From Candidatus Bathyarchaeota archaeon (GTDB lineage Archaea; Thermoproteota; Bathyarchaeia; 40CM-2-53-6), in contig CAWHWX010000019.1 in assembly GCA_963833125.1 (NCBI GenBank), positions 128,001 to 192,000 on the forward strand: 64,000 nt of DNA. The letters run 5' to 3'. The notes beneath the pieces were generated by a model that saw only the letters and a program-made list of their open reading frames with translations, was not told the DNA's origin and made no database searches. Positions 1,966 through 26,759 of this stretch are shown one piece after another. The first letter of the stretch is position 1. Every line of letters begins with the position of its first letter. The translations under genes and the position numbers were made by a program.

Positions 1966-2878
1966 GGCGAAGGGACCACTGCCGTTTCCACCTGGACTCC
2001 TCGCGGCTCGCTTCCCGGAGCAGAAATTTAAGAGTGCTCTGGGAGAGGCGCCACAAGGGAAACCGCTGCAAACCGTGGATCCCGCTAATGATGTGCTGAC
2101 ATTAGCGGATGCTGGAGACGTGACATTTCCGTTCCAGATTAATGGCTCTGAAAAGCATTTCTTTGGCAAAGGCCTTCCTAAGGTCAACCTCGCACAACTC
2201 AAGGGAAAACTGCTCGTCGTCGAAGGGTCAGATGGATCAGGAAGATCTACACAAATCGACCTATTGCACAAGCACCTAGAAGTCCTCGGCTATCCGACAA
2301 TAGACGTCGGTCTAAAACGGTCACGTCTGTATCCGGAATTGCAGGAAGCTCTTCTGGGGAATACGCTAAGCCCTGTCACAATGACCCTCTTTTACGCGAC
2401 CGACTTTGCAGATCAGCTCGAGAACAACATCCTTCCCGCCCTGAGGGCTGGTTTCGTAGTGCTTGCCGACCGTTACATCTACACGCTCATGGCCCGTGAA
2501 GTCGTCCGGGGGATGAGTAGGGAATGGGTGCAGAAAATGTACAGTATTGCCTTGGTTCCCGATGCCGTGTTCTACCTCGCTGTCAGCCCTCGCATTCTCG
2601 CAGAACGCAACCTCATGAAGAGCGGATTGCTCGACTTCTGGGAATCGGGAATGGACATTCGCCGTTCGGGGGACATGTACCAATGCTTCGTCGATTATCA
2701 ACGAAAAATGCGCGCAGAATTCCAACGCATGGCTTTGGATTACAAATTCGAAACCATTAACGGAAACAGATCCCCCCTTGCTATACATCGAGAATTGAGA
2801 TCCAAGGTCGAAAAAGTTCTATCGAGATTACCACCAATTGAGACTCATCACGATAAGGAGCCTGCACCCAGCAATTGA
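1889..2878 (+). CDS. Thymidylate-kinase-like protein, domain/subunit 2 with variant P-loop (probably continuous with domain 1 across a frameshift near 1930)
   Basis: EGSDGSGRST (K->R), TDFADQLE, LADRY; paralogous to the upstream ORF. Confidence 0.78.
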   Translation: MQAAPPTTSNNQSDFVNQRIDLSKHKAKGPLPFPPGLLAARFPEQKFKSALGEAPQGKPLQTVDPANDVLTLADAGDVTFPFQINGSEKHFFGKGLPKVNLAQLKGKLLVVEGSDGSGRSTQIDLLHKHLEVLGYPTIDVGLKRSRLYPELQEALLGNTLSPVTMTLFYATDFADQLENNILPALRAGFVVLADRYIYTLMAREVVRGMSREWVQKMYSIALVPDAVFYLAVSPRILAERNLMKSGLLDFWESGMDIRRSGDMYQCFVDYQRKMRAEFQRMALDYKFETINGNRSPLAIHRELRSKVEKVLSRLPPIETHHDKEPAPSN

Positions 2879-4568
2879 GAAAAAGAAAAAGTTCGGTAAG
2901 AAAGAAACAGGTCCCGCAAACGCGCAGAGCCCCGGCGCGGCGCAGATTGAGCCGTTCAAGAACAATATTGCAAGATAAACGGCTGGCGATAGGTAAATCG
3001 AGGAGAAAGCAAACCAAACCCGAACACGTTCCACAAAAGCCCTCCAAAAAACCAAAACCGAAACCAAACCAAGACCGAGACCAAAAACAACACAGAAACC
3101 GAAGCCGGCAGTGAAATCTGTAAGGTCTGTCGCTCTCAAGAAAGTCCCCAAACGTAGAGTAGCTGTGAAGGCGGCCCTTCGACGAACATCCGGCGGGAGG
3201 GACGTCCTGAATTTCATTATTCTAGCCCTAGACAAGCGATGGAACGATTACCTAACAAGTTTGAAGCGCTATCAGCAGCTAGCTTCGGTTAAGAATGTCC
3301 ACGATCTCCGCGTTAGCATTAGACGCCTCACTACAACCATAGATTTGATCGATAGATTCAATCCGGATAACGTAGTCCGGCAGGCTCACGTCAAACTCAA
3401 GGACCAACTCCAAGAGCTAAGTGTTCTTCGAGACGTTCACATCGAAATGGTAAGGATGCGAGGTTTTCTGAAAGAACTACCCGAGACGAAGGAGTTCTAC
3501 GACGAGCTACGTGACAAGGAAACCAAGTATCTAAAGTCCGCCAATAAGATCCCCTGGAAATCGGATAGAAGATTTATTGAAAACGCCGTCAACAGAGCTA
3601 GGATTAGGCTAAACGCCCGGCGCGCCACTACTACGTCAGAGAATTCTCGCAGAATAGTCGACGCCGCGTTAGACGTTTCTTTTGATAACTTGAGCAAGAA
3701 ACTTGAAGATGTTACGCCCGCGGATTATGCCTCGATTCATCGAGTGCGGCTTGCCTTCAAGCCGCTGCGGTATACAATTGAGATGCTGCAGCCAGTGGTG
3801 GGACTGGATAGTCGGCAGCTTAGAACCGCCACGCTTCTCGCACGACTAATGGGACAGATTCAGGATCTCGAGGTTCTCATGAAAGATCTAGTTGAGTTCA
3901 GATGGAAGAAAGGAAATGTACCTGGTGCGGTAGTAGAGATATGGTTGGACCTTGAACGACGGAAAATGGAAGCAACCCAACGCTTTCTTAGGTCTATTCC
4001 GAAATTCGGTAACATCTGGAAGCCAGTTATTCATGAACAAACAGGCGTAGCATCCTCAGCTTCCAAGACGTTATTCATTCTTCGGCACGGGATAGCTGTT
4101 ACTCGTGGCGATGCAGCTTACCCTTTAGATTCCGATCGACCTCTAACGATGAAAGGTGTGAAGAGGCTTCGTCGGATCGCCAAGGGCTTGCGTCACTTGA
4201 ATGTTCAGTTTGACTTGATCCTGACGAGTCCGTATAGGCGAGCTTTGGAGACAGCGTTCGTCGTTGGGCGCGAGTACGGGGTGGGACAGATAATTCAAAC
4301 TTCCCAGGCGCTTAGACCCGATGTACTTCCGGAGGAAGCCATCAGAGCCGTGCAAGAGAAGTACTCGCCATGCCGGCGCTTGCTCTTGGTGGGACACGAA
4401 CCTCAGTTGAGTGCGTTGATTTCCACCTTGACAACGGGAAGCGCAAGCGCGAGACCGGTGCTTAAGAAAGGAAGCGTTTGCAAGCTTCAAGTAGAAAAAT
4501 TACTAATGGGCAAGTGCGCAACACTGATCTGGCTGCTTACCCCAAGGCAACTGATCAACATCGCCTAA
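2875..4568 (+). CDS. CHAD domain + SixA-type phosphohistidine phosphatase fusion, with probable K/R/P-rich N-terminal extension (frameshift near 3045)
   Basis: CHAD motifs VHDLRVSIRR, LRDVH, IHRVRLAFKPLRY, MGQIQDL; SixA motifs LRHG, TSPYRRALET, VGHEP. Core ORF 3111..4568, basic ORF 2875..3114. Confidence 0.85.
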
Positions 4569-5517: not shown

Positions 5518-6483
5518 CCGTTGACCCCCGGGGATGGAAACTTAGTCTCGAAATTAGTACTCGACCTGCCAGGTTCATCAGAAAAGCGATCGCAAGAGAA
5601 TCAGACCGAGCTCGAATAGAGCGGCGAGGTAAATGTTGTTTCCTGCGACTTCTGTGAACTCATTAGCGATCACGCTTGGGATAGTTTCTGCAGGAAGGAA
5701 AAGTGAAGGGGTGATTCGTGCGACGTTCCCGATGACCATTATGACGGCCATGGTCTCTCCGATGGCCCTGCCCATCGCTAGAACGATGGCCGCGATTATG
5801 CCTGTGCTGGCATACGGAACGACTGCCATTCGGATTGTCTCTAACCGTGTTCCACCCAATGCGATGCAAGCCTCTCGCTGACTACGCGGGACCACCACAA
5901 CAACTTCCCGCATAACTGCGGACGCATACGGGGTGATCATGATCGCCAAAATGAGACCGGCGGTGAGCATTCCGAGTCCGTTTGTTTCACCCGCGAAGAT
6001 TGGAATGAATCCGAGTGAGCCTATAAGTCCGGGATCTATGTAATCTCTCATGAAGGGGACGAGAAAGAATAATCCCCAGAGTCCATAGACTACGCTAGGT
6101 ACGGCAGCAAGTAATTCAACTAGAAAGATCGAGGGCAGTCGCAATTTCCTAGGAGCCAACTCTGATTGAAATAGGGCAACACCCAAGCTTATTGGAACCG
6201 CAAATAATAGCGCAATTAACGTTGTCACTATGGATCCGTACATTGCGGGGAGTGCTCCCAAGATTGGAGGTCCACCGTTGGGCGGATTCGGAATCCATAG
6301 GGTACCTGTCAAAAAGCTGAGCCCTAGGGCTTGAATAGAGTCCAAGCTTCCAGTGTAAAGCGAATACACGGTAAGAGCCGCGATGATTGGAATCGCAACC
6401 GCTGCAATAATTAAGACGAAGTGCAAAAAATCATGGTGCCGTGTCCTTTGACGAACACGGTTTTTCTCGAGTTGCTTTTGCAT
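5510..6483 (-). CDS. pstC: Phosphate ABC transporter permease PstC (C-terminal frameshift)
   Basis: ELLAAVPSVVYGLWG, GRAIGETMAV. Confidence 0.95.
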
Positions 6484-6499
6484 TGTGCGCCGCTAGCTT

Positions 6500-7781
6500 C
6501 TATCCGGTCAGGAGGACTGTACCTTGGTAGTTGAGCGTCATCAGTAGTTGTTCGTCAGCTGCAACAACGTTTGCTGGGAGTGGTACGTAATCCAATGGCA
6601 TTGAATACTGCTGTCCATCATGGATTGCCCACCAAAGGAAGTGTACTAGGGCTTGTGCCTTAGCGAGAGTTGTGCTAGGGTTTGCAGACAAGTCTCTGTA
6701 GACGAGGATGTAGGTGTAGGTTGAGATCGGATAGGATTGTGCTCCGGCGGCTTCTACTAGGTGTATTCTAAGATCGTTAGGGTTAGGGGCCTTGCGTTCT
6801 GAGCGGCGTAAAGGATCGTTTGTAGAGTTGGTACGATGAAATTGCCTGCTGGGTTCTTGACCGCGCCTACCCCGAGGTTATTTTGGACTGCGTAGATAAG
6901 ATCAACATAGCCTAATGCTCCGTTGGTGTTCGCCACCGTACCTGCAACTCCGGAATTACCCTTTGAGCCAACGCCATAAGCCCCAAGCTTCGTGTCAACA
7001 GGCCAGGTCACCGAGGTACTGTATCCCACTTGTGCTGCCCAGTTTGGGACGGCAACTGACAAGAAGTTCGTGAAGGCATATGTCGTTCCGCTGCCGTCTG
7101 ATCTGTGTACGGCGGTGATGAAGCCGTTCGGTAAGGCGACACCAGGATTAAGCGCCACTAGAGCTGGATCATTCCATTTGACTATGTTTCCCATGTAGAT
7201 GTTAGCTATGACCTCTGGTGTGAAGTTCAGTGTGACATTATTGCTTACGCCCCATGCTTGCAAATTGTAAGTAATGGCCACCCCACCGAGTGTCTCAGGG
7301 AAAAGAGTGAGACCTGGCGGGCCGCCAACTGTTGGTTGTTTAGTGGAGCGTCGGAGGCACCAAAGTCGACTGTCTTTGCTGATATCTGTTGGATTCCGCC
7401 GCCGCTACCAATGGGATTGTAGCTTATGGTAACTGCAGGGTATAGCTGGTTGTAAGTGACCGTCCATTTCTGAAGTAATGGGGCGGGAAACGTGGCCCCC
7501 GCTCCAAGAAGCGAGACGGGCGTCGTTGGTTGGTATCCTGCTACAGAAGATGTTGCTGACACCATGGAGGTTTCGGTCATGGTCGCTGAAGTCATCACCG
7601 ATGACGCTGACGACATCATCGACGATTCAGAAGACATAACTGATGCTGTTGACATGCTTTGAGCTGTGCTACTGTTCATTGTCGTGAAGTAGTATCCTCC
7701 TGCAACTGCCGCCAATATGACGACAACAAGAGCAACTATTCCGACATTACGCTTGTTATTCTTGCTCGACATGCGAATCAT
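6500..7781 (-). CDS. pstS: Phosphate-binding protein PstS with N-terminal TM anchor and Ser/Thr/Met-rich linker (2 frameshifts)
   Basis: GAGATFP, GSGGGI, DFGASDAPL, HRSDGSGTT, YPISTYTY. Confidence 0.95.
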
Positions 7782-7826: not shown

Positions 7827-7854
7827 GTGAACATGCGTACATATGTGTGTTCAC
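7827..7854. promoter_or_regulatory. Imperfect palindrome in the divergent pstS/pstB intergenic region (candidate operator)
   Basis: GTGAACA-N14-TGTTCAC with partly symmetric spacer. Confidence 0.45.
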
Positions 7855-7929
7855 CATCATCTATATGATTCATATAACTCGCATTCAATTACTCAATGAT
7901 CACAGTAACCGAATGGTCGGTAGCGAAGC

Positions 7930-15600: not shown

Positions 15601-16266
15601 ATGTCAGAAGTTGAAGAAAAAGAGGGGATGCCGAAATCAGAGGACCTACTGATCCCCTTAGAAGATCTTCTCGCGGCAGGCCTCCACATCGGAACAAGAA
15701 TCAAAACCGGTGACATGGAACCGTACATTTACCGAGTTAGACCCGACGGACTCTTCATACTAAATATTGGAAAGACGGATGAAAAGATACGTACTGCTTC
15801 CCGGTTCATAGCCAGGTTCGAAGCAGAACGAACCCTCATAATCTCGTCGAGGCTCTACGGGAAAACCCCCGTTGAGAAGTTCTGCGAGATCACGAGAACG
15901 GTTCCAGTGGTCGGCCGTTTCATGCCCGGCCTAATATCAAACCCACTTCAACCCAATCACGCAGACCCTCAGGTCATTATGGTAACCGATCCTAGAGCCG
16001 ACTGGCAATCAATCAAGGAATCGTCAACAGCGGGGGTCCCAGTTATCGCGCTCTGTGACACTGACAACGTCTTCAGTGGGGTCGACCTCGCCATACCAGT
16101 GAACAACAAAGGCCGCCGCGCATTAGCTATGCTGTACTGGCTATTGGCTAGACAAGTTCTGCGTGACAGAGGAGAACTACCAGCGGATGGAACCATAACT
16201 GCAACAGTGGACGACTTCGAAACAAAGCTGGCCGCTATCGCCCCTAGATCGGGCGGTGAGCTTTGA
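15601..16266 (+). CDS. rps2: 30S ribosomal protein uS2
   Basis: AGLHIGT, GRFMPG, IPVNNKGRRAL. Confidence 0.97.
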   Translation: MSEVEEKEGMPKSEDLLIPLEDLLAAGLHIGTRIKTGDMEPYIYRVRPDGLFILNIGKTDEKIRTASRFIARFEAERTLIISSRLYGKTPVEKFCEITRTVPVVGRFMPGLISNPLQPNHADPQVIMVTDPRADWQSIKESSTAGVPVIALCDTDNVFSGVDLAIPVNNKGRRALAMLYWLLARQVLRDRGELPADGTITATVDDFETKLAAIAPRSGGEL

Positions 16267-17114
16267 AAATTCGGAAACCATATGTCGCAAACGCATTCTA
16301 CGCCGGAACCAAAACTGCACTCACCAAACAGATAACCGACTGCTTCACCCACCCCTTTGGGCCGGGTCAGGTTCCGAAACCAAACCCGCAAGGCCAACGA
16401 AAGATCTTGGGGTTAGTCTGTCCACACGCGGGATACATGTACTCAGGGCCGGTGGCGGCGAATGGGTACGGTAAGCTCGCAACCGACGGACAACCAGACG
16501 TGGCCATTATTCTCGGGCCTAACCATACCGGACTGGGAAGCGGCCTCTCGATTCAGACCGAAGGAGCGTGGGAGACGCCCATCGGCATAACCCGAGTCAA
16601 TTCTGACCTAGCTAGGAAGATCCAAAAGTCAAGCAGTATAATCGACGTCGACGATACGGCACACGCTAGTGAACACTCCATAGAGGTTCAACTACCATTC
16701 CTCCAGTTCCTATTCAAAGACGCCATAGAATTCGTCCCCATATGCATGATGATGCAAGATCTAACAACGTCCATAGACGTTGCGAAAACCATCATTGAAA
16801 CCACGAAAGGTAAGAATGTTGCAATAATCGCATCGAGCGACTTTACCCACTATGAACCGCAGGCGGCCGCAAATAGGAAGGACAGGGAAGCGATCGACGC
16901 GATACTCAAACTCGATGATAAACAACTAAATGAGCTGGGAGGCAGCAACCGCGTGACAATGTGCGGGTACGGCCCAATAACCACCTTGATCGCCGCAGCG
17001 AAAATGCTCGGTGACGTGAAACCCGATTTGTTGGCGTACAAGACCAGCGGGGATATCACGGGAGATAAATCAGCGGTGGTCGGGTATTCGTCGTTGACTT
17101 TTACTCGTAACTAG
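16263..17114 (+). CDS. MEMO1 family protein (AmmeMemoRadiSam protein B)
   Basis: PHAGYMYSG, GPNHTG, EHSIEVQLPFLQ, SSDFTHY, MCGYGP. Confidence 0.95.
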   Translation: MKIRKPYVANAFYAGTKTALTKQITDCFTHPFGPGQVPKPNPQGQRKILGLVCPHAGYMYSGPVAANGYGKLATDGQPDVAIILGPNHTGLGSGLSIQTEGAWETPIGITRVNSDLARKIQKSSSIIDVDDTAHASEHSIEVQLPFLQFLFKDAIEFVPICMMMQDLTTSIDVAKTIIETTKGKNVAIIASSDFTHYEPQAAANRKDREAIDAILKLDDKQLNELGGSNRVTMCGYGPITTLIAAAKMLGDVKPDLLAYKTSGDITGDKSAVVGYSSLTFTRN

Positions 17115-17120
17115 TGACAC

Positions 17121-18110
17121 ATGGAGCCGTTTAATTTTTCTAGAAGACACGCGAAACTAGTGAAAGGCGAAACTTCTTTGGGCCAAGCTGCAGGGTTCGG
17201 TAAAGTAATTCTCTTCAACGAACACTTCGTCGTGTACGGAATTCCTGCAATCGCTTCAGCTATCGGGGCCAAGACAATTGCATCAGTCGAGCGAAGTGCC
17301 GGATCTGGGGTAGAACTCAAGGATGAACGCCCTGAGACTCCAGGATACAAGGCTGAGAAGCTAGAGCAGCAAAAGGAGTCTTTGGATATCATGCTCAAAT
17401 TCATGAAAATTGACACACAACATGACCACTACACGATCACCTTGGGCGGAGATTTGATCGCTGCCAGCGGTGTAGGAGCAAGCGCGGCTTCCTGCGCTGC
17501 AATCGCCCGCGCATACTCACAAGAACTCAACCTCAACTTTTCAGACGAGAGAGTAAATGAGGTGGCCTACGAGGGAGAAAAGGGATACCATGGAACGCCG
17601 TCAGGCATCGATAACACGGCGGCAACATACGGCGGCCTGATCTGGTACAGACGCGAGGGATCGGCGCAATTGATGGAACGTATGCGACTTCGTAAGCCCG
17701 TGGAGATAGTGATGGGAAATACGGGGAAAGTCGCAGACACCAAGATCGTAGTAGCGGGAGTCAAGGAACGAAAAGAAAAGGAACCTGAAAAGTACGGGCG
17801 CTTCTTTCAAGACGCGGATCAACTGGCTCGGAATGCGAGGAAGCAACTTGAAGATTTCAACCTCGAGAAAGTGGGCGCCTACATGAACGAAAACCACAAA
17901 CTGCTCCAGGAAATAGGCGTGTCCTCTCCAGAGCTGGATGCCCTAGTGAAACTGGCCCGCGACACGGGTGCTCTAGGAGCGAAACTTACGGGAGGGGGAA
18001 GGGGAGGCTACATGGTTGCACTTACCCCGGGGCGAGAACTTCAGGATCGGGTGGCGAACGAAATCGAACGGCATGGTTCCCAGACGCTTCGTACCATGAT
18101 CGGCATTTAG
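17121..18110 (+). CDS. mvk: Mevalonate kinase
   Basis: GKVILFNEHFVVYG, SGVGASAA, HGTPSGIDN, GAKLTGGGRGG. Confidence 0.93.
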   Translation: MEPFNFSRRHAKLVKGETSLGQAAGFGKVILFNEHFVVYGIPAIASAIGAKTIASVERSAGSGVELKDERPETPGYKAEKLEQQKESLDIMLKFMKIDTQHDHYTITLGGDLIAASGVGASAASCAAIARAYSQELNLNFSDERVNEVAYEGEKGYHGTPSGIDNTAATYGGLIWYRREGSAQLMERMRLRKPVEIVMGNTGKVADTKIVVAGVKERKEKEPEKYGRFFQDADQLARNARKQLEDFNLEKVGAYMNENHKLLQEIGVSSPELDALVKLARDTGALGAKLTGGGRGGYMVALTPGRELQDRVANEIERHGSQTLRTMIGI

Positions 18111-18133
18111 ACTATCGCCGATCAACATTTCTC

Positions 18134-19267
18134 TCATAACAGTTGCAACGGAAGGTGCCTCAGGACCAACTCGTATTCATTCGCCTTAGCAATAATCGCA
18201 TTGATACTGCCCTCATGGAATCTATCCCTGTCTATTATGAATGCCAGCCCATCCCAGCCACCTGCCCCTGGACATCGTCCAGCGACGATGCCATGAATTT
18301 TTTCTGCAAACTCTATCAGCTTCGTAAGAGGTTCAGGTTCTATTGGATCCAGGTCAGCATAGGATTTTGCGACCAGGCCTTGCAATCTTCTGTGGATTTC
18401 CCTTGCCGAGTGCGTGCAACGCCTCAAGCCATCGTTGTCGCCCTTAAGCACTCTGCCAATTGCATCCGTTTCACTCGAATTCTGCTTTTCCATGAGCTCA
18501 CGGTATTCGGATGGGTGTTGGCTCTTCCATTCACTCACTGTCCGTACATTACTGACCGTTGATGTTTTTCCGCCCTCGATATTGAAGAAGAGCAAGCCGT
18601 ACTTCGATGGCATTGAGACTAGTTGGGTCTGTAGATCTGGCCAGGGCTTTTCAATCGAAGACAGAATCTTCGATGTCGTTTCTGTTGCATTCTTGAAGTC
18701 TAGAGGTAGAATGATCGAGCTGGGATTGAATCGCTTGTATATTATGGTGTGGCCGGCTGCGCAAGTGGCAATGTCAAATCCAGACCCGATCTTGTTTGTG
18801 AAAGCAGCGCCACAGTACTGTGATAGTTTATGAATAATCTCACTATGTTCGGCGTTGTCCATGCAGTAGGCGTGAAAGAGAGATTTGACGACAGCAACAG
18901 TGGCGGCTGCGGAGCTTCCGAGCCCCGATTTATGTTCGATTCCAAAGATCGGACTGTTCGTAAGGGACACGGTATGACTCGTGGAATGCCCTTTTGATTT
19001 TAGGTATAATCTAGTTAAGAAAAACGTTGAGACGGCGATATTCTTTCGTATTAATTCGGGAGAATCGATCATTTGTTCGATGCCAAATTGTCTGGCGATC
19101 AGAGCATCCGAGTCGGCATCTTCGACTGTAGCAGTGACCCCGTTCCCCGTATGGTCAACGACAGCCAAAGAGAGTGAGATGTGTCCAAGTTCTAGGACAG
19201 AGTATCCTCCGAAGAAGAGGACCTTCCCAGGGACGTTCAGAGTCTTTTTCTTGAGCTGAGTAAGCAA
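18134..19267 (-). CDS. Phosphomevalonate kinase, ERG8-type GHMP kinase
   Basis: PGKVLFFGGYSVL, KSGLGSSAA, KIGSGFDIA, PGAGGWD match ERG8-type motifs. Confidence 0.85.
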   Translation of the reverse strand: MLTQLKKKTLNVPGKVLFFGGYSVLELGHISLSLAVVDHTGNGVTATVEDADSDALIARQFGIEQMIDSPELIRKNIAVSTFFLTRLYLKSKGHSTSHTVSLTNSPIFGIEHKSGLGSSAAATVAVVKSLFHAYCMDNAEHSEIIHKLSQYCGAAFTNKIGSGFDIATCAAGHTIIYKRFNPSSIILPLDFKNATETTSKILSSIEKPWPDLQTQLVSMPSKYGLLFFNIEGGKTSTVSNVRTVSEWKSQHPSEYRELMEKQNSSETDAIGRVLKGDNDGLRRCTHSAREIHRRLQGLVAKSYADLDPIEPEPLTKLIEFAEKIHGIVAGRCPGAGGWDGLAFIIDRDRFHEGSINAIIAKANEYELVLRHLPLQLL

Positions 19268-20305
19268 TTAGCGGTCAGCGTCCTTGGGTCCCCCGCCAAC
19301 TTCCGTCCTGTAGGTATTTTCCTTCCCGACGATCGCCTTCAAACGCTCCTCTACTTCTTCTGCGTTCTTCTTCAGCGCAAAAATGACCACGTTGGGACCG
19401 GCATCAAAAGTGTAGGCCCCATAAGCCAATGGTTGGATAGTGTTTATGATTTCGGTGCTCTTGTCGTTTAGGTAGATGATCGGGGGGTCAGTTCTCCAAC
19501 ACACTGCGTGAAAGTTGTTCGAGGCCTGCTTCGTCAATTTGAACATTTGAAGCCAATTCCTTTCTTTAACGGCGTTGAGTATCGCTGGGAGCAGAGTTTT
19601 TTCCTCGTAATCCACCCATTGCCAATAGTCGTATACACTTCGAACGCTTTCCTTCATGCCCGCCCGGCTTTTTGTTTTCTTCTCTTGTTCTGATTCCACT
19701 TTAGCGTAGATGATGGAGAGGTCGCTGAAGTATGCTGGTTCGTAAAGTGTTTCTGCGTATGAGAGGTCTGAGGCTTCAGCTTCAGAAGTAGCATTGTCAA
19801 ACCCTCGGTGCCAGATAACGAATCCGCCTCGTGAAGGGACGGAACGGGCTGCTGAGCCGGATCCTAATCTCGCTAGTACTGAGAGCTGCCTTTCATTCAA
19901 CTGGGGTAAGCGATCTAGCTTGCTCATCGCTTTTGCGAATGCGAGTGCTAACGCAGAGAATCCCGCTGCAGAGGAAGCAAACCCCGATGCCGTTGGAAAA
20001 TCATTTTGGGATGATATTTCGTACCGATAATCCTTGGTGAATTTGTAGGTTCGGGTAATCTTGTCAAAGAAGTCTTTAACGTAATCGAATTCGCTTTGTG
20101 TTTCCTTTATCTTCTTACCGTTCAGTTGAAATGCGATTTCTCCCTTACCGCTCTCAACCCTAAGGAGGGTCTTTGCGTGGAGCCCTTGGATTGTGAAAGA
20201 GACGGAACTCTTGGTTGGTATGAGCAAATGTTCGTATTTCGGATACTTGCCCCAATACTTCACGAGCGCAATGTTGGTTGGGCTCTCAACGCCAACTACT
20301 AGCAC
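19268..20305 (-). CDS. mvaD: Diphosphomevalonate decarboxylase family protein
   Basis: NIALVKYWGK, FPTASGFASSAAG, ARLGSGSAARS, SRAGM, YTFDAGPN. Confidence 0.88.
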   Translation of the reverse strand: MLVVGVESPTNIALVKYWGKYPKYEHLLIPTKSSVSFTIQGLHAKTLLRVESGKGEIAFQLNGKKIKETQSEFDYVKDFFDKITRTYKFTKDYRYEISSQNDFPTASGFASSAAGFSALALAFAKAMSKLDRLPQLNERQLSVLARLGSGSAARSVPSRGGFVIWHRGFDNATSEAEASDLSYAETLYEPAYFSDLSIIYAKVESEQEKKTKSRAGMKESVRSVYDYWQWVDYEEKTLLPAILNAVKERNWLQMFKLTKQASNNFHAVCWRTDPPIIYLNDKSTEIINTIQPLAYGAYTFDAGPNVVIFALKKNAEEVEERLKAIVGKENTYRTEVGGGPKDADR

Positions 20306-20413
20306 ATGGTTCGAGCGAACTAATCGCGTTATAAGAGTTACCCACTGTTAGGAATATTTTTCACCTGTAAATCCCAAGTTCTAAAGGTAAGTAGGTACTT
20401 CGGGTTCAGATGA

Positions 20414-21688
20414 TTGCCGATGGCCAAAAGTTCTGAACTTTCCGGATTCTATAAGCTCACCGTTGCTGACCGGGTAAAAGCGGTTAAGGATTTTGCTGGG
20501 CTCAATGATGAAGAAGCGGCTTTACTTCAGAAGCCAGGGGCGCTGGGATTTGATGTTGCCAATCGCATGGTTGAGAACGTCATCGGCGTAATGCCGGTCC
20601 CGATGGGCGTCGCAATGAATTTTCTCATCAATGGGAGAGAGGTTATTGTTCCTATGGCGATTGAAGAACCATCGGTAATCGCGGCTGCTAGTAATGCGGC
20701 TAAGATGACTCGGGCAAAAGGCGGTTTCCAAGCCACAACCACCGACCCTATCATGATTGGGCAAATTCAGGTCGTGGGAGTTCAGGACGCATACAGAGCA
20801 AGATTTGAAATTCTCGCACAAAAAACGGAGCTCTTGAAGCATGCTAACGCGCAGGACCCTGTCTTAGTCTCTCTGGGGGGCGGTGCTCGAGACTTAGAGG
20901 CTCGGATCATCGACACTTTTCAAGGAAAAATGATCATAGCTGAATTATTGGTCGACTGCCGCGATGCGATGGGAGCAAACGCTGTGAATACGATGACCGA
21001 AGCAATTGCTCCACTTATTGAGAAGATCTCAGGAGGACGGGTCTATCTGCGGATCATATCCAACTTAGCCGTGAAACGATTAGCCCGTGCCAAAGCAACT
21101 TTCCCGAAGGAAGCGCTTGGTGGAGAGGAAGTTGTAAACGGAATTGTGAACGCATACGCCTTTGCGTCAGCGGACCCTTACCGATGTGCAACGCACAACA
21201 AGGGTATCATGAATGGTGTGACTGCTGTCGTCCTTGCAACCGGCAATGATACCCGAGCCATCGAGGCCGGTGCGCACGCATACGCTGCTAGGTCAGGTCA
21301 CTACACATCTCTGACATCATGGGAGAAGGACGCTAATGGCGACCTAGTGGGGACTTTGGAGATGCCGATGGCTGTGGGAATAGTTGGCGGAGCAACTGCA
21401 TCGAATCCAATTGCGAAAATCGCTGTGAAGATTCTTGGGATAAAGACTGCCAGGGACTTGGCAGAAGTGATTGTTTCGGTTGGTCTGGCCCAAAATCTAG
21501 CCGCGCTGCGTGCTCTGGCGTCCGAGGGTATTCAACGTGGGCACATGGGCCTGCATGCGCGGAACGTAGCGATAAGTGTCGGCGCGACAGGAGATCTGAT
21601 CGATAAGATTTCAGCACGTATGGTGGCTGAAAGAAAAGTAAGGGTGGATCGTGCGAAGGAGTTGCTGGAGGAGTTTTCTAGGCGTTAG
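20414..21688 (+). CDS. mvaA: HMG-CoA reductase, class II
   Basis: ENVIG, EEPSVIAA, DAMGANAVN, THNKGIMNG, GIQRGHM. Confidence 0.95.
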   Translation: MPMAKSSELSGFYKLTVADRVKAVKDFAGLNDEEAALLQKPGALGFDVANRMVENVIGVMPVPMGVAMNFLINGREVIVPMAIEEPSVIAAASNAAKMTRAKGGFQATTTDPIMIGQIQVVGVQDAYRARFEILAQKTELLKHANAQDPVLVSLGGGARDLEARIIDTFQGKMIIAELLVDCRDAMGANAVNTMTEAIAPLIEKISGGRVYLRIISNLAVKRLARAKATFPKEALGGEEVVNGIVNAYAFASADPYRCATHNKGIMNGVTAVVLATGNDTRAIEAGAHAYAARSGHYTSLTSWEKDANGDLVGTLEMPMAVGIVGGATASNPIAKIAVKILGIKTARDLAEVIVSVGLAQNLAALRALASEGIQRGHMGLHARNVAISVGATGDLIDKISARMVAERKVRVDRAKELLEEFSRR

Positions 21689-22049
21689 GTGGTGATGGCG
21701 GAGTTTCAACTTCTACTAGCATTTCGATGCGGCGAATCTTCGGAATCGCATCCTTCTCCATCCACTCGGAGATGGTATCGTACATCTTTCTGTAGTACTT
21801 CTTGGTTGCGTGCTTTACTATTCCGAGGCGTTCCATTCGGCGAATATAGCGCCACTTCATGCTTCGAGAAATTTTGTCTCCCATTAAGCGGTCGATGTCG
21901 ACTTTCTTGAAGACCTTGGGTAGGTGGGCAAATGTTCCAACAATTTCTTTTGGAAAGGCGGTTAAGGATTCCTTCGAAAGTTTTCGTTTGCCGCGAGATT
22001 CAATCCCGCGCATCCTGGTGTCATTTGCTTTCAAAATATACCCTTCCAT
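21678..22049 (-). CDS. Hypothetical basic protein, possibly winged-helix
   Basis: 123-aa ATG ORF filling the gap; RRMERLGIV resembles a wHTH recognition helix/wing. Confidence 0.5.
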   Translation of the reverse strand: MEGYILKANDTRMRGIESRGKRKLSKESLTAFPKEIVGTFAHLPKVFKKVDIDRLMGDKISRSMKWRYIRRMERLGIVKHATKKYYRKMYDTISEWMEKDAIPKIRRIEMLVEVETPPSPPNA

Positions 22050-22121: not shown

Positions 22122-22961
22122 TCACAAGGAGCCGAACACGAAGGCGAGTAGGCCGAACGTCATCCAGAGAAGTACGTACTTCTTGCTGCGCTTTGCATTC
22201 CGGGGGCTTGGATTACTCAAAATGGAGTACGCGGTCAATACAAAGCCAAAGTCGCATATTGCGACCAGTGGTATATAGAGGGAGGTAACCAAACCGAATA
22301 GTAACGGTAGCGAGCTTAGGGCAACGGCGGCTAGGAAGAGCGCGGCGCCATACTTCCCAGCGACCACATTCCCTTTTGTTACGGCGATAGATCTAACTCC
22401 TCGCGATTGATCGCCGGGAACATCAACGATGCCCTTCACAATTTCCCGCCCTACGCTTGAGAGGAAAGCCAGCAGAGCGAAAATGGTGAGTGACCAATTC
22501 AGACTAGCTACAGCAAATCCACCATAGAGGAACGGTATCGCTACGTTCGTGCTAACCAATATATTGCCGAGCAGACCCGTTTTCTTCAGCTTCGCATTGT
22601 AAGAAATCATAATCACCAGGCTAAGCAGCGCTATCACGAGAGTTGGAATCCCAGTGTTAGAGGCTGATAGAAGCCCAAGAGATGCTAAGATCGCAGCAAA
22701 GGAGAGCGCTTCTCTCGCACTAACCACGCCCGAAGGTAGAGGCCGCGTAGGCTCGTTGATCGAATCGATCTCACGGTCAAAATAATCATTTACTACCATT
22801 GAAGCGGCCAACAGAAAGAAACCTGCAGCGAAACCGTAAAGCAGAGCCCTGGCGGTAACCGTTGAAGAAGATATGATTTCACCCACGATGACTGCGAAGC
22901 CTATCATTACGCAATTAGGCAAGCGCATGATAGTTAGGAGTCCAACGATTTTCTGGACCAT
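22122..22961 (-). CDS. Digeranylgeranylglyceryl-phosphate synthase (UbiA family)
   Basis: MRLPNC, NDYFDREIDSINEPTRPLPSG, GREIVKGIVDVPGD. Confidence 0.9.
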   Translation of the reverse strand: MVQKIVGLLTIMRLPNCVMIGFAVIVGEIISSSTVTARALLYGFAAGFFLLAASMVVNDYFDREIDSINEPTRPLPSGVVSAREALSFAAILASLGLLSASNTGIPTLVIALLSLVIMISYNAKLKKTGLLGNILVSTNVAIPFLYGGFAVASLNWSLTIFALLAFLSSVGREIVKGIVDVPGDQSRGVRSIAVTKGNVVAGKYGAALFLAAVALSSLPLLFGLVTSLYIPLVAICDFGFVLTAYSILSNPSPRNAKRSKKYVLLWMTFGLLAFVFGSL

Positions 22962-23104
22962 GGAATAGTTAGAGTTGGACTGCAATTCTTTCGGGCCCAC
23001 TTGATGCGCGAACAACTCTTTAACCCACCATTTTAATAGTGTCACGCCCGTTTGAACAACAGTCAATCTCTCTCAACACTCCGAGATGGTGGGTGACTCA
23101 TCCC

Positions 23105-23854
23105 TTGTCCGAAATCAAAATCGGCCCCGTAGAAAATCATCTACTGACAGTGATTAAGGAAAGAGGAGTTGCTCACCTAACCCTCTTCGACCCAGAAAAA
23201 CTGACGCCGTTTGCCGCCAAGAAATTGGCGGCCGAGGTTAAGAAGGCTGGTACGGCTGCGGCCATGGTTGGAGGTTCCACGTCGACCTCAGTCTATGAGC
23301 TCGATGCAATTGTTAAAGCGATCAAGCCTTCCGGGCTCAAGGTGATCCTTTTTCCGAACGATGTTGCGGGGTTGAGCCGGGATGCCGATGCTGTCTTCTT
23401 CATGTCTCTGTTGAATTCGATAAATCCATACTACCTCTCGGGAGCCCAAGCGCTTGGAGCTCCACTAGTGAAGAAGTACCGTATCGAACCGATTCCGCTG
23501 GCGTACTTGATTATAGGAGAACACGCTGGCGCAGCAGGTTTTGTGGGCAACGCGAACCCCATCCCATACGACAAGCCCGAACTAGCAGCAATCTACGCCC
23601 TAGCCGCAGAATATCTCGGGATGAGATTCGTCTACCTTGAAGCCGGCTCAGGAGCGAAACATATAGTCTCTTCAGAAATGGTTTCGGCGGTGCGCAAGAC
23701 TTGCCGAATGCATATCATAGCGGGCGGCGGCATTAGATCCCCACCACAGGCCGTAAAACTTGTGAAGGCAGGCGTCGATCTAATCGTTACGGGTACAATT
23801 GCGGAAAAAGCATCTGTGAGGAAACTGCGCGAAATAATCCAAGCCATACAGTAA
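23105..23854 (+). CDS. Geranylgeranylglyceryl-phosphate synthase (PcrB family)
   Basis: HLTLFDPE, MVGGST, FMSLLNS, YLEAGSGA, GGGIRS. Confidence 0.94.
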   Translation: MSEIKIGPVENHLLTVIKERGVAHLTLFDPEKLTPFAAKKLAAEVKKAGTAAAMVGGSTSTSVYELDAIVKAIKPSGLKVILFPNDVAGLSRDADAVFFMSLLNSINPYYLSGAQALGAPLVKKYRIEPIPLAYLIIGEHAGAAGFVGNANPIPYDKPELAAIYALAAEYLGMRFVYLEAGSGAKHIVSSEMVSAVRKTCRMHIIAGGGIRSPPQAVKLVKAGVDLIVTGTIAEKASVRKLREIIQAIQ

Positions 23855-23857
23855 CAG

Positions 23858-25684
23858 TTGGCTAGCCGCTTGGCGCATTCGTTCTCGAGACGCATCACTG
23901 GTACCACGCCCTACTACAACATGATTAGGCGGATAGCATTTCCATCGACAAGGACGATCATTGTCAACTCGATTCTCTTCACAACATTCGGAATCGGATT
24001 GTCCTTCCTAATATCAGAAGGTACACCCGGATCCTTCCTGGTCGGCATGGTATGGGGAGTAGCCACCCTCGCCATTCCTGCTCTCGCGTCAGACATCGTT
24101 CTCTACTTCACGATAATGAAGAAGGACCCCCTCTTCTACTTGAGACGGTGTCTTGGTCTCTCACTGTTCACAACGATCACGATGGTTATTGTGTTTCTAC
24201 TCAGTGCAATCATCGCCGTCCTCGATCCAAGGTTCATCTTTCCTGACTTCGCTATCATAGTAGGATTATTTGCCGTTATTCCGCCGAGGGCTCTGGCGGT
24301 TTTTTCAATGTCGAGGACCAGCTTCGCAAGGAGATTGCTGTTCGCGCTCCTTGAACCATGCTTGATAGTGATAACTGTGGTACTTCTGTTCGGCCTTCCG
24401 GCGGGACGCATGTTTACGGGTCTGCTGCTCGCCTCAACTGTTGGTGTGGCGTTTGCTTTTGCGTTGATTTCCACGATTGAATCCAATGGCCGCAAAGCAA
24501 TAGGGTTCTCACCCATCCGAATGTTTCGTGCTTTCCTGACTGATTGGTTAGAAGGCCAGAATGATGAGCTCGAGTCATACCTCTACGAGTTAGGTGTGGA
24601 AACCGAGGTAGATACGGCCGCATTTGCGTTTCGCAAGAAAGGAAGTCAGAACATTAAGGGCATGATTCTAGTCTCCACCCTACATCCTGGTCCATTCCTA
24701 AACGTCGGTAGCAGCGTTTTCCCATATCTGTTCGAATCCGCTGTCCAGAGAACGTTCAATGCGGTGGCGTTGGTCCCTCACGGTGCATCCGGCCACGAAC
24801 TGAACCTAGTGTCCCAAGAGCAGAATGAAAGAATCCTCAACTGGGTGTTCACGAACCTCGAAAAGGCAGAATATTACGGAGGCGCCACTCCCGTTGAAAG
24901 AAGTGCCAACGAGATGGCCACTGCGACTTCGCAAATCTTCGACGGGTGCGCTCTAGTTACGATGACTACTTCGCCGCTGGACATGGAGGATATCCCGTCT
25001 GAATTAGGGAGAAACCTGTTTGGACTCACGCACGGCAAATTTCGGAGCTTAGCGTTAGTCGACGCTCACAATTGTCTCACTGGCCCCACAACCATGACTC
25101 CTCAGAAGGTAGGTGCGCTCCAGGAGGCAGCGTTGGCTGCGTTACAGATTTCCTCAGAGCAACAGTCAAAGAACTTCAAGGTTGGAGTTGCCCACAAGAC
25201 GCCGGAAGGATTTACGTTGAAGGATGGGTTCGGGCCGGGGGGAATCTCTGTAATTGCCCTCGAAGTCGAGGGCCAGCGGTTCGCATACATAACTATCGAT
25301 GGGAACAACATGATTAGTGGGCTGAGGGAAGAGATTCTCAAGAGTGTCAAAAGCATAGGCTTTGATGATGCAGAGGTCATGACAACCGACACACACATGG
25401 TCAATGGAATAGTATCCGCACGTCTAGGGTACCACCCCATAGGCGAAGTCGTTCCAAGAAGACCAATAGTCCAAGAAATCACAGCGGAATGCCGAGAGGC
25501 TCTGAGCAACTTAGAGGAGGGTGAGGTCGGTGTGATCTCCGGTCAGATCCCAGTTACAACGCTCGGCCAGAAATCACTAAGGCGCGTTATGGGCATGGTT
25601 TACAGAGTCTCGAAATTGACCGCCCTCACGCTTTTCCCAATGGTAGTAGTAATCACGGTCCTATCCCTACTCTTTCTGGTGTGA
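23858..25684 (+). CDS. DUF2070 family membrane protein
   Basis: N-terminal TMs; HPGPFLNVGSS, VPHG..GH, DAHN, IDGNN, TTDTH. Confidence 0.85.
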   Translation: MASRLAHSFSRRITGTTPYYNMIRRIAFPSTRTIIVNSILFTTFGIGLSFLISEGTPGSFLVGMVWGVATLAIPALASDIVLYFTIMKKDPLFYLRRCLGLSLFTTITMVIVFLLSAIIAVLDPRFIFPDFAIIVGLFAVIPPRALAVFSMSRTSFARRLLFALLEPCLIVITVVLLFGLPAGRMFTGLLLASTVGVAFAFALISTIESNGRKAIGFSPIRMFRAFLTDWLEGQNDELESYLYELGVETEVDTAAFAFRKKGSQNIKGMILVSTLHPGPFLNVGSSVFPYLFESAVQRTFNAVALVPHGASGHELNLVSQEQNERILNWVFTNLEKAEYYGGATPVERSANEMATATSQIFDGCALVTMTTSPLDMEDIPSELGRNLFGLTHGKFRSLALVDAHNCLTGPTTMTPQKVGALQEAALAALQISSEQQSKNFKVGVAHKTPEGFTLKDGFGPGGISVIALEVEGQRFAYITIDGNNMISGLREEILKSVKSIGFDDAEVMTTDTHMVNGIVSARLGYHPIGEVVPRRPIVQEITAECREALSNLEEGEVGVISGQIPVTTLGQKSLRRVMGMVYRVSKLTALTLFPMVVVITVLSLLFLV

Positions 25685-26759
25685 CAATGATCCCAAGCGT
25701 ACCTCGTGATTCACATTACATGCAGCTTCCACGGGAGGTTTTGATTGGCAACAACGTTGCGCCTTTGGTGGGCGAGACACTGATCAGACTCGGCTTTCAC
25801 GGCCCGACACTGATGGTTACTGGTGAGAAGGTAATCTCGATTGCAGGCGACACCGTCCTTGAATCACTGAAACTGCGTGGTTTCAAAACGGAAACGATGA
25901 CCGTAAAGAGTTCCACAACTGAGGAAGTGGGTAAGGTTGAGAACAAGATCCGTGAGATGAAACCCGACGTGGTCGTTGGTGTTGGCGGTGGTAAGGATAT
26001 CGACGTAGCCAAGCTGAGCAGCATGAGAGCGGGCACTCGATTCCTAAGTGTACCGACGGCCGCATCACATGATGGCATCGCCAGCCCGCTTGTTTCGATG
26101 AAGGGCATGGATCGCCCCTATTCCTACGTTGCTCATTCCCCAATCGCCATCGTCGCAGACACCGCCATAATCGCCAAGTCACCATACCGACTAATCGCAA
26201 GTGGCTGTGGGGACGTAGTTGCAAAGTATACGGCTGTGCGGGACTGGAAGTTGGCGCATCGAATAAAGAACGAATACTACGGAGACTACGCAGCCGAACT
26301 TGCTCTAATGAGTTCACGTGTTGTCATTAAGAACGCCAGTCCAGCATTCGGGCGATGTCCGATTCAGGAGTGAGGACCTTGGTGGAGGCGTTGATCAGTT
26401 GCGGAGTGGCGATGAGCATAGCAGGCACAAGCCGCCCTTGCAGCGGAGCGGAGCACCTCTTCAGCCACTCGCTTGCCATGATCGCCCCGAAACCAGCCTT
26501 GCATGGTGAACAGTGTGGCGTTGGCACGATCATGTGTGCATATTTGCATGGAGCGAATTGGCAGTTGATCAAGGACTTCCTTCACAAGATTGACGCTCCC
26601 ACAACGGCAAAGGAATTGCAGATTGAGTCAGAGTACATACTGAAAGCGCTAACCATGGCGCATAGTATACGGCCCGAACGTTACACAATTCTAGGAGAAA
26701 GTGGTTTAACTCAAGATGCGGCTCGTAAGGTTGCGACGATCACCGGCGTGATCGAATAG
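25681..26759 (+). CDS. egsA: sn-glycerol-1-phosphate dehydrogenase (frameshift near 26345)
   Basis: [40 protein letters not shown]. Confidence 0.95.

Follow-up and report, generated by a model that had tools for sequence, protein, structure and literature searches.

The classical lower mevalonate route has been characterised biochemically in the Sulfolobales (Nishimura et al. 2013, as cited in PMC6107057), and its three enzymes, mevalonate kinase (MVK), phosphomevalonate kinase (PMK, or PMVK) and diphosphomevalonate decarboxylase (DMD, or DPMD), have been reported from the genomes of a few Micrarchaeota (Hoshino & Gaucher 2018; PMC6107057). The text passages of PMC11052028 place PMK and DMD in the Sulfolobales, some DPANN and Asgard archaea, describe Asgard (Hodarchaeales) contigs that carry both together with AMPD and AcnX, and report a phosphomevalonate decarboxylase (PMD) in Bathyarchaeia. 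At the level of text passages, this was the only paper found in the literature on Bathyarchaeia combined with both enzyme names. A first-pass annotation of the DNA considered here had described the PMK-DMD route in archaea as characterised mainly from the Sulfolobales, which needs amending in that the route had already been reported from some DPANN and Asgard genomes (PMC6107057, PMC11052028). The DNA in question is a 64,000-nucleotide stretch of the genome of a Candidatus Bathyarchaeota archaeon (contig CAWHWX010000019.1, positions 128,001 to 192,000; hereafter the window), and the element under study is a pair of adjacent genes within it, encoding a PMK-like kinase and a DMD. It is likely that this archaeon makes isopentenyl diphosphate (IPP) by the classical lower mevalonate route, that the pair was acquired as a unit from a DPANN-type archaeon, and that a block of archaeal-type genes was lost by recombination between repeats. 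This reading draws on gene content, synteny, phylogeny, a residue signature, a predicted fold and purifying selection, from which we infer enzyme activities, the identity of the donor and the order of events.

The genome holding the window is designated G000, its congeners carry other G numbers, loci and metagenome contigs carry L numbers, and sequencing runs are numbered X1 to X5. The genes described from Micrarchaeota (PMC6107057, text passages) are the same pair, from the same clade as those of G000, with a decarboxylase-then-kinase order that is shared with low-GC contigs; in G000, however, the pair lies in a Bathyarchaeia chromosome, within an rps2-MEMO1-mvk...HMGR lipid locus, beside a native MVK and with the native route displaced. 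The Sulfolobales (DMD structures 5gmd and 4z7c) follow the same three-step logic in the same phylum, and Sulfolobus 5gmd matches the G000 decarboxylase over its full length (151.6 bits) with the same Tyr/Lys/Ser/Ser/Ser set. The Hodarchaeales contigs, as described in the passages of PMC11052028, resemble metagenome contig L054 in combining classical and archaeal-type genes on one contig. In the Bathyarchaeia, by contrast, this coexistence is one stage in a series of three slot states with flanks 82-97% identical, and represents a shallow acquisition rather than a candidate ancestral state. The haloarchaeal/Chloroflexi route, which combines a phosphomevalonate decarboxylase with isopentenyl phosphate kinase (IPK) (Dellas et al. 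2013; PMC3857490), has a counterpart in the congeners of G000, whose native slot gene has the Chloroflexi-type monophosphate decarboxylase (MPD) residue set and co-occurs with IPK, whereas G000 has lost both the native PMD and IPK and its decarboxylase carries the diphosphate-type (MDD) set.

Organisation of the locus and the predicted pathway

As the first-pass annotation had it, the GHMP kinase gene (18134..19267; 377 aa) and the decarboxylase gene (19268..20305; 345 aa) lie on the minus strand between mvk and a class II HMG-CoA reductase (HMGR), and are separated by 0 bp. The stop codon TAA of the upstream decarboxylase (19270-19268) is followed directly by the TTG start of the kinase at 19267. 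The left anchor of this variable slot, mvk (17121..18110, plus strand; 329 aa), is native to the lineage, shares 84-90% amino acid identity with its orthologs in G015, G019 and G016, and supplies the mevalonate kinase of the classical route (TIGR00549, 236.2 bits; cut-off 163.05). Its stop TAG (18108-18110) and the kinase stop TGA (18136-18134) converge across a 23-bp spacer (18111..18133), which forms the left boundary of the exchanged segment. The right anchor, HMGR (20414..21688, plus strand; 424 aa), may have its true start at the ATG at 20421, and belongs to the NAD-type class II, with 488.3 bits against TIGR00532 (cut-off 259.95) and 57.3 bits against the class I model TIGR00533 (cut-off 441.8). 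It shares 80-96% amino acid identity with most congeners compared, and 68-78%, in pieces, with G006. The divergent intergenic region between decarboxylase and HMGR (20306..20413) contains a single hybrid copy of a repeat of about 80 nt. The absence of ipk and idi from this slot, noted in the first-pass annotation, was borne out, as neither gene was found in the mvk-HMGR interval.

In the proposed route, the native mevalonate kinase would convert mevalonate to mevalonate 5-phosphate, the acquired GHMP kinase would phosphorylate this to the 5-diphosphate, and the acquired decarboxylase would yield IPP. An IDI1-like Nudix protein encoded elsewhere in the genome may isomerise IPP, and the adjoining lipid genes would consume the isoprenoid product. 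The suggestion that the cassette feeds ether-lipid synthesis agrees with the predicted functions of the genes that follow directly, namely a DGGGP synthase, a GGGP synthase and a G1P-dehydrogenase-like protein.

G000 is a metagenome-assembled genome (3.07 Mb in 39 contigs) with 7% contamination and several frameshifted genes, which could point to an assembly or binning artefact in which a DPANN fragment was mis-joined into a Bathyarchaeia contig. The same junctions, however, occur in independent assemblies, namely in G016 (on a 535-kb contig), in metagenome contig L053 (53 kb) and in an X1 contig, which refutes the artefact; composition is also uniform, and the pair co-diverges with its flanks. 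A chimeric join, which the earlier annotation had named as fatal to its reading, thus has practically no probability. Gene order is collinear over 14 kb with G016 (82.3% nucleotide identity) and L053 (84.8%), while the X1 contig (5,920 nt, about 94% identical) bridges kinase, decarboxylase and HMGR. The shares of the sequencing runs were all small (0.15 or less), with X1, X2 and scattered X4 contigs usable; four X2 contigs are at least 99% alike to the window, and X2 is possibly the source sample.

Substrate signature of the decarboxylase

The decarboxylase exceeds the cut-off of the mevalonate diphosphate decarboxylase model TIGR01240 (194 bits; cut-off 171.35), and reaches 81.7 bits against the 475 of the PMD model NF040704. 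Its scores against the Thermoplasma-type models NF040848 (27.7/440) and NF040847 (24/560) place it outside the M3K and BMD families, and the catalytic Asp is kept. Six positions separate diphosphate-specific from monophosphate-specific decarboxylases (Dellas et al. 2013, Table 4; PMC3857490), all of which are MDD-like in the G000 enzyme. The proteins of G000, G016 and their DPANN homologs share the motifs KYWGK, GSGSAxRS, KSRxGM and FDAGPN, and carry the MDD set Tyr/Lys/Ser/Ser/Ser, with Leu at the variable position 27, plus the equivalents of Arg144 and Asp283. The native decarboxylases of the congeners instead have KYHGL, Arg at the position-27 equivalent, GAGSASRS and Thr, with the Asp kept, which is the MPD set Tyr/Leu/Arg/Ala/Ser/Thr exactly as in the Chloroflexi type. 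Where an MPD would have Leu, Met or Tyr at position 21, Arg at 27 and Thr or another polar residue at 192 (and at least 475 bits against NF040704), the G000 enzyme has Lys, Leu and Ser. The acquired and native types share 24-28% identity.

Among protein structures, the G000 decarboxylase matched Arabidopsis MVD1 (6n10, 159 bits), 6xr5 (153) and Sulfolobus 5gmd (152) ahead of 6n0x and 6n0z (120-125). The last two entries are titled DMD; we take them to be the Anaerolinea monophosphate enzyme. With its full diphosphate-binding signature, the acquired decarboxylase is predicted to be specific for the 5-diphosphate.

Identity of the kinase

Scored against the curated NCBIfam cut-offs, the kinase finds its best family matches in three PMK models, all below the cut-off: the ERG8-type TIGR01219 (110.9/376.95, with the match falling in two stretches), Arch_PMK (85.4/500) and the Gram-positive PMK (77.8/165.7). 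Against the MVK model it scores 35.7 bits. The label 'ERG8-type' given in the first-pass annotation is apt insofar as TIGR01219 is the best match, but curated membership is not reached, and the protein is better described as an ERG8-like GHMP relative of the PMKs than as an equivalog. GHMP-type PMKs occur in fungi, plants, bacteria and Sulfolobales. Throughout the clade of the G000 kinase the GHMP P-loop motif GLGSSAA varies little or not at all, and in the maximum-likelihood tree this kinase lies inside the PMK clade, separated from the MVKs with 100/100 support. An AlphaFold (AF2) model built from a 59-sequence alignment (mean pLDDT 95.3) gave three PMKs as its top Foldseek matches, Listeria innocua Lin0012 (3k17) and Streptococcus pneumoniae PMK (3gon, 1k47) (TM 0.71-0.85), followed by MVKs (TM 0.58-0.79). 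The kinase is thus predicted to fold as a PMK, although it shares only 16-22% sequence identity with these three structures, of which a sequence search finds 3k17 alone.

A non-classical reading would have the decarboxylase act on mevalonate 5-phosphate and the GHMP kinase stand in for IPK non-orthologously, phosphorylating isopentenyl phosphate. The subthreshold kinase scores and the missing IPK would suit such a route, and some decarboxylases have been reported, in the passages of PMC11052028, to be active on both substrates. However, the G000 decarboxylase has every diphosphate-contacting MDD residue and no MPD substitution, the best matching kinase folds are PMKs with bound phosphomevalonate (3gon), and the kinase-decarboxylase pair co-occurs widely on DPANN contigs, which together make a non-classical route very improbable.

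Absence of the archaeal-type route from G000 and G016

The archaeal-type route, for which AcnX, UbiD and IPK are all required, is incomplete in both G000 (88% complete) and G016. A whole-genome search of G000 with the IPK model NF040647 (cut-off 120) gave at best 37.9 bits, and all six AA_kinase matches are other enzymes, namely aspartate kinases (one split in two frames), LysZ/ArgB, carbamate kinase and UMP kinase. In the same genome there were no UbiD matches and no native PMD, and IDI2 reached at best 49 bits against 281.3. No IPK, AcnX or UbiD was found in the sister species G016, which is 96% complete in three contigs and likewise lacks a native PMD and IDI2; since these genes are missing from this more complete genome too, their absence from G000 is unlikely to reflect assembly gaps. 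The genome search for ipk and PMDh/AMPD that the first-pass annotation had proposed thus came out in favour of its reading, a low-scoring AcnX paralog being the only match in G000.

This AcnX, a large and small subunit pair (G000:C18, 19881-21530; L019:7882-9531; 397 bits), falls in a paralog group of 384-415 bits which several congeners carry beside a separate copy of 445-531 bits adjoining UbiD. That it could be a relic PMDh was considered and rejected on its score group and its absence from G016. The pair adjoins an amino-acid permease, and its NCBIfam matches lie far below the cut-offs, with cis-3-hydroxy-L-proline dehydratase (210.7/700) for the large and DUF126 (99.5/163) for the small subunit.

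The candidate isomerase of G000 is an IDI1-like Nudix protein (C5:72220-72696; L020). IDI2 occurs in 11/22 congeners, and IDI1-like Nudix proteins (49-76 bits, below 105.8) in G000 and eleven congeners. The two are almost complementary in the genus, with only G011 having both and G003 neither, a pattern suggestive of another enzyme replacement within this pathway, earlier than the one at the slot. The HMG-CoA-synthase-like (HMGS-like) protein of G000 (L052:1486-3066; G000:C34) has 526 aa, about 180 aa more than the 345-position archaeal model, and may be a fusion.

The native slot in the genus

The slot lies in a frame that is conserved in the genus, rpoD...rps2-MEMO1-[slot]-HMGR-orf123-DGGGPS-GGGPS-DUF2070-G1PDH. 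Orthologs of the acquired kinase were found in one of the 22 other species of the genus (G016; 79% identity). An IPK above the cut-off was found in 20/22 congeners (in two fragments in G009, none in G016), UbiD in 14/15 congeners plus three of four further ones, and a decarboxylase-family match in every congener, broken or partial in G003 and G017. The slot of G019 encodes mvk, the native decarboxylase, AcnX small and large, UbiD, UbiX, IPK and HMGR. In the G015 slot, additional small ORFs separate the native decarboxylase, AcnX large, UbiD and IPK, and neither UbiX nor AcnX small was detected. G018 and G011 have mvk and the native decarboxylase in the slot together with UbiD and both AcnX subunits, an IDI2-like gene being also present in G011. 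The claim of the first-pass annotation that the native route was replaced in situ is supported by these contents, with AcnX, UbiD, IPK and in part UbiX in the same slot in G015 and G019, and both gene sets in L054. It needs amending in one respect: beside the archaeal route, an MPD-signature decarboxylase likewise belonged to the native slot, and the cassette occupies the position of this gene.

Four congeners with a native slot (G019, G015, G018 and G011; loci L044, L045, L047 and L049) are predicted to encode in one cluster two parallel conversions of mevalonate 5-phosphate into isopentenyl phosphate, one by the MPD-signature decarboxylase and one by AcnX and UbiD. Two decarboxylase-family copies are present in G018, G021 and G013. 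The mvk at the slot in G006 (L046:5728-6717) and G014 (L048, about 18774-19685) has 34-35% identity to that of G000, while the flanking genes are 66-90% identical, which suggests that mvk too has been exchanged in part of the genus.

Three slot states and the order of events

Three slot states could be distinguished among near relatives: native (A; G019 and G015, loci L044 and L045), cassette plus archaeal block (B; L054 and L055) and cassette only (C; G000, G016 and L053). The gene order in L054 is HMGR, IPK, UbiX, UbiD, AcnX large, AcnX small, acquired decarboxylase, kinase and mvk, the acquired pair standing where G019 has its native decarboxylase. Compared with the window, L054 has an extra 4.6-kb IPK-UbiX-UbiD-AcnX block at about 20370-20386. 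This block is 89-91% identical to that of G019, the flanks being 85-86% identical. It is bounded in L054 by direct repeats of about 80 nt (3187-3266 and 7841-7919), of which G000, G016 and L053 each have a single hybrid copy; no such repeat was found in the state-A loci of G019 and G015. L055 is 95.6% identical to L054 from its position 6183 on, and is rearranged just upstream of AcnX large. Its first part (L055:1-6217) encodes CDC48, a NUDIX gene and small ORFs instead of UbiD, UbiX, IPK and HMGR, with the breakpoint at the AcnX start. At the left junction, G019 and L053 become homologous again about 7 nt beyond the mvk stop, and X1 and X4 contigs match the window as far as 18110, past which both diverge from it and share their unmatched letters; on the HMGR side, an X4 contig diverges upstream of 20371.

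Both genes would have been received together from a DPANN-type archaeon, either by the common ancestor of a shallow clade within one Bathyarchaeia genus or by its ancestral population, and would have been inserted between mvk and HMGR where the native phosphomevalonate decarboxylase had stood. In state B, one relative still has the whole block (PMDh, AMPD, UbiX and IPK) beside the cassette, and a near-identical relative at least the PMDh genes. The 4.6-kb block was most likely lost in G000, G016 and L053 by recombination between the direct repeats. Because these flank the block in state B and leave one hybrid copy in state C, repeat-mediated deletion is the simplest path from B to C.

The opposite order may also be envisaged, in which a single step exchanged the whole native block, PMD to IPK, for the pair, which thereby acquired the divergent IPK/HMGR promoter (A to C). 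State B would have arisen later, when a C-type cassette and promoter recombined into an A-type chromosome, and G019 would hold a retained or re-imported native allele. The L054 repeat at 7841-7919 is similar to the region upstream of HMGR and to some 10-16 nt at the 5' end of HMGR itself, as expected if the promoter once abutted HMGR; state-A G019 nests among state-C genomes; and the repeat was not found in the state-A loci L044 and L045. Deletion between repeats that exactly flank the missing block is, however, the simpler single step. The identity of the L054 and G019 blocks is also about that expected for co-divergence (89-91% against 85-86% in the flanks, with the same offset against G015), and the common ancestor therefore probably had the archaeal block. 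In L055 the block is further broken up, which fits ongoing loss. On balance we regard the opposite order as rather unlikely. A recent transfer of the L054 block from a G019-like genome was also considered and was rejected as unproven, the same identity offset being seen between L054 and G015, and the junction sequences are too diverged for independent deletions to be counted.

In trees of the flanking genes, G000, G016, L053, L054 and L055 form a clade with 100% support, in which G016 pairs with L053 and L054 with L055, and the cassette tree gives the same three groupings. When G019 was added to the flank tree it became sister to L053, with 97.1% nucleotide identity over five or six flank genes and 95.8% over 5.9 kb. 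The contig with the G019 slot also has L053 as its best match (91.9% at the mvk end, 93.5% at the HMGR end), and by its coordinates abuts the flank contig inside mvk.

Several findings weigh against the proposed classical route and its history of a single gain followed by deletion. The kinase stays under the curated cut-off of every PMK model, and its sequence search of the PDB matches only 3k17 (55 bits). The isomerase (70.4 bits against 105.8) and HMGS (277 against 353.35) candidates also fall short, and G000 has a completeness of 87.8% and a contamination of 7%. The order in which the three sub-lineages branch has only 56-66% support, and in L054 the copy of the repeat next to the decarboxylase contains the decayed start of HMGR, which would also fit C first and B as a later recombinant. 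As state-A G019 nests within the cassette clade, a single gain with vertical descent is not the whole history, and the slot content must have been shaped by recurrent deletion, by reversion or by recombinational exchange. Lastly, the DPANN donor is inferred from deeper named branches and from contig L056, and not from the immediate sister sequences of the Bathyarchaeia cassette (64-77% identity).

A more tentative proposal, possible but on the doubtful side, is that the lower route amounts to a 'pathway allele' that can be exchanged at one fixed slot within a species complex of Bathyarchaeia. The three contents would move between near-conspecific genomes by homologous recombination through the conserved mvk and HMGR flanks and be sorted by ecology, the classical pair having come from a DPANN archaeon living with the hosts. 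Such sorting could, for example, reflect what it costs in soil, peat or sediment to maintain an oxygen-sensitive Fe-S dehydratase along with a prenyl-FMN decarboxylase.

Origin of the pair

The kinase-clade profile matched 2/401 genomes sampled from the class (131 genera), G000 and G016. Across the phylum (401 genomes, 162 genera) its only matches were G000 (499 bits), all 15 genomes of family f53 (103-142) and two genomes of family f58 (about 60). Family f53 is taken as Sulfolobales, as its genome features look like theirs. In contrast to the G000 kinase, which is nested deep in a DPANN-type clade (nested supports 100/100, 100/98 and 100/100), the f53 kinases form a separate long-branched clade outside it. 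The decarboxylase tree has the same shape, with a seven-member tip group in a 27-member clade in an 89-member clade, where most of the named sequences come from Micrarchaeota, Anstonellales, Parvarchaeota, Marsarchaeota and Bilamarchaeum. In both trees G000 falls within a fully supported clade of mostly such DPANN-type names, and the nearest named relatives of both its genes are Micrarchaeota, Anstonellales and Parvarchaeota proteins (34-48% identity). These trees, which the first-pass annotation had called for, and the rarity of the pair both speak for its view that the pair was acquired.

Matches to kinase and decarboxylase pair on contigs of equal size in at least 25 match pairs, and the decarboxylase-then-kinase order is kept on three low-GC contigs (L056, L057 and L058; GC 0.31-0.37). 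The MVK of L056 is closest to proteins named Aenigmarchaeota (up to 71% identity), and L058 presents an unrelated archaeal context. A single-sequence kinase search of GTDB contigs returned only a 27%-identical match in a Bacillota metagenome-assembled genome, which is uninformative.

In composition the pair (GC 0.48, GC3 0.52-0.54) is not distinct from its neighbours, and its dS of 0.67-1.19 is like that of the flanks. Compared with G016, L053 and L054, the kinase had a dN/dS of 0.11-0.14 and the decarboxylase one of 0.06-0.10, next to 0.07-0.11 for mvk and 0.08-0.12 for MEMO1. The low dN/dS, flank-like dS and unremarkable GC and GC3 indicate a pair that is under purifying selection, probably functional, ameliorated and older than the splits inside the clade. 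Its indistinct composition could also be read as that of a pair ancestral to the Bathyarchaeia or to the genus and lost almost everywhere else. Its presence in 2/401 genomes of the class and 1/22 congeners, its nesting inside a clade of DPANN-named sequences and its position where relatives have a non-orthologous decarboxylase (24-28% identity) leave such an ancestral origin barely credible.

The first-pass annotation had seen in the locus a bearing on the origin of the eukaryotic pathway, which is not sustained: within the class, the cassette is seen in a single shallow clade of one genus, and its genes nest inside a DPANN-type clade. It is a shallow horizontal acquisition, and shows how easily the route is transferred between archaea rather than where it began. 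Since the two-gene unit travels between archaeal phyla, the presence of the route in a lineage, the Asgard archaea included, is weak evidence on its origin. Bathyarchaeia are hereby added to the archaea carrying the classical route.

Replacement among the four mevalonate routes has usually been argued from deep, poorly resolved trees, and this locus displays the process at close range. The flanking DNA is only 3-18% apart, yet three stages are found: the native route, both routes, and the classical route alone. Its value lies in these preserved stages from before, halfway through and after the exchange. The defined breakpoints, and a repeat that explains the loss, make the replacement testable. 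The enzymes and fitness of the three states can be compared, the question being what favours dropping PMDh, AMPD and IPK.

Neighbouring genes and further observations

Upstream of mvk lie rpoD, L18e, L13, S9, rps2 and MEMO1. The rps2-MEMO1-mvk run noted in the first-pass annotation is present, with rps2 (15601..16266, plus strand) encoding an archaeal/eukaryal uS2 (TIGR01012, 251.7 bits; cut-off 211.5; 90-98% amino acid identity in congeners), and the next gene a MEMO1 family protein (16263..17114, plus strand; PF01875, 262.5 bits; NF001987, 295.7 bits, cut-off 295). The S2 protein of congener G018 carries the NCBI label 'Candidatus Bathyarchaeia archaeon', in line with the proposed non-Sulfolobales host.

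Downstream of HMGR, a UbiA-family, DGGGP-synthase-like prenyltransferase (22122..23066, minus strand) scores 145.3 bits against PF01040 and 261.7 bits, just below the cut-off of 269, against NF009523. It is followed by a GGGP synthase (23039..23854, plus strand; TIGR01769, 248.4 bits; cut-off 161.55) and a DUF2070 membrane protein (23858..25684, plus strand; PF09843, 389.4 bits), whose position between the GGGP synthase and the G1P-dehydrogenase-like gene is conserved by synteny. The latter (Fe-ADH_2; 25681..26759, plus strand) is split into two frames (25681-26373 and 26355-26759), of which the first matches PF13685 with 118.2 bits. Its frame is open for 282 codons in G000 against 357-450 in five relatives. 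Other split genes in G000 encode an aspartate kinase (L007; G000:C36), histidinol dehydrogenase and a DUF4147/MOFRL protein (L019:11325-12648 and 2674-4024), which suggests that the split frames are assembly indel errors rather than pseudogenes. Contig C18 of G000 also carries two enolase genes in tandem, as well as a DpnI-like restriction enzyme beside an N6/N4 DNA methylase (L019:13-2587 and 5654-7601).

From the RNA library X5, a single 222-nt contig covers 20060-20281 with four differences, by which transcription is not established. A scan for sigma-70 promoters and terminators gave results at or below shuffle expectation, the model not being applicable to archaeal promoters. Between HMGR, whose 3' end it overlaps, and the prenyltransferase gene lies a 123-aa ORF (21678..22049, minus strand) with 81-91% amino acid identity across the genus, for which neither Pfam nor NCBIfam gave a match. 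The closest Atlas clusters consist of Bathyarchaeota hypotheticals, with a faint MarR-like/winged-helix lead (0.90). Its product may regulate the lipid locus.

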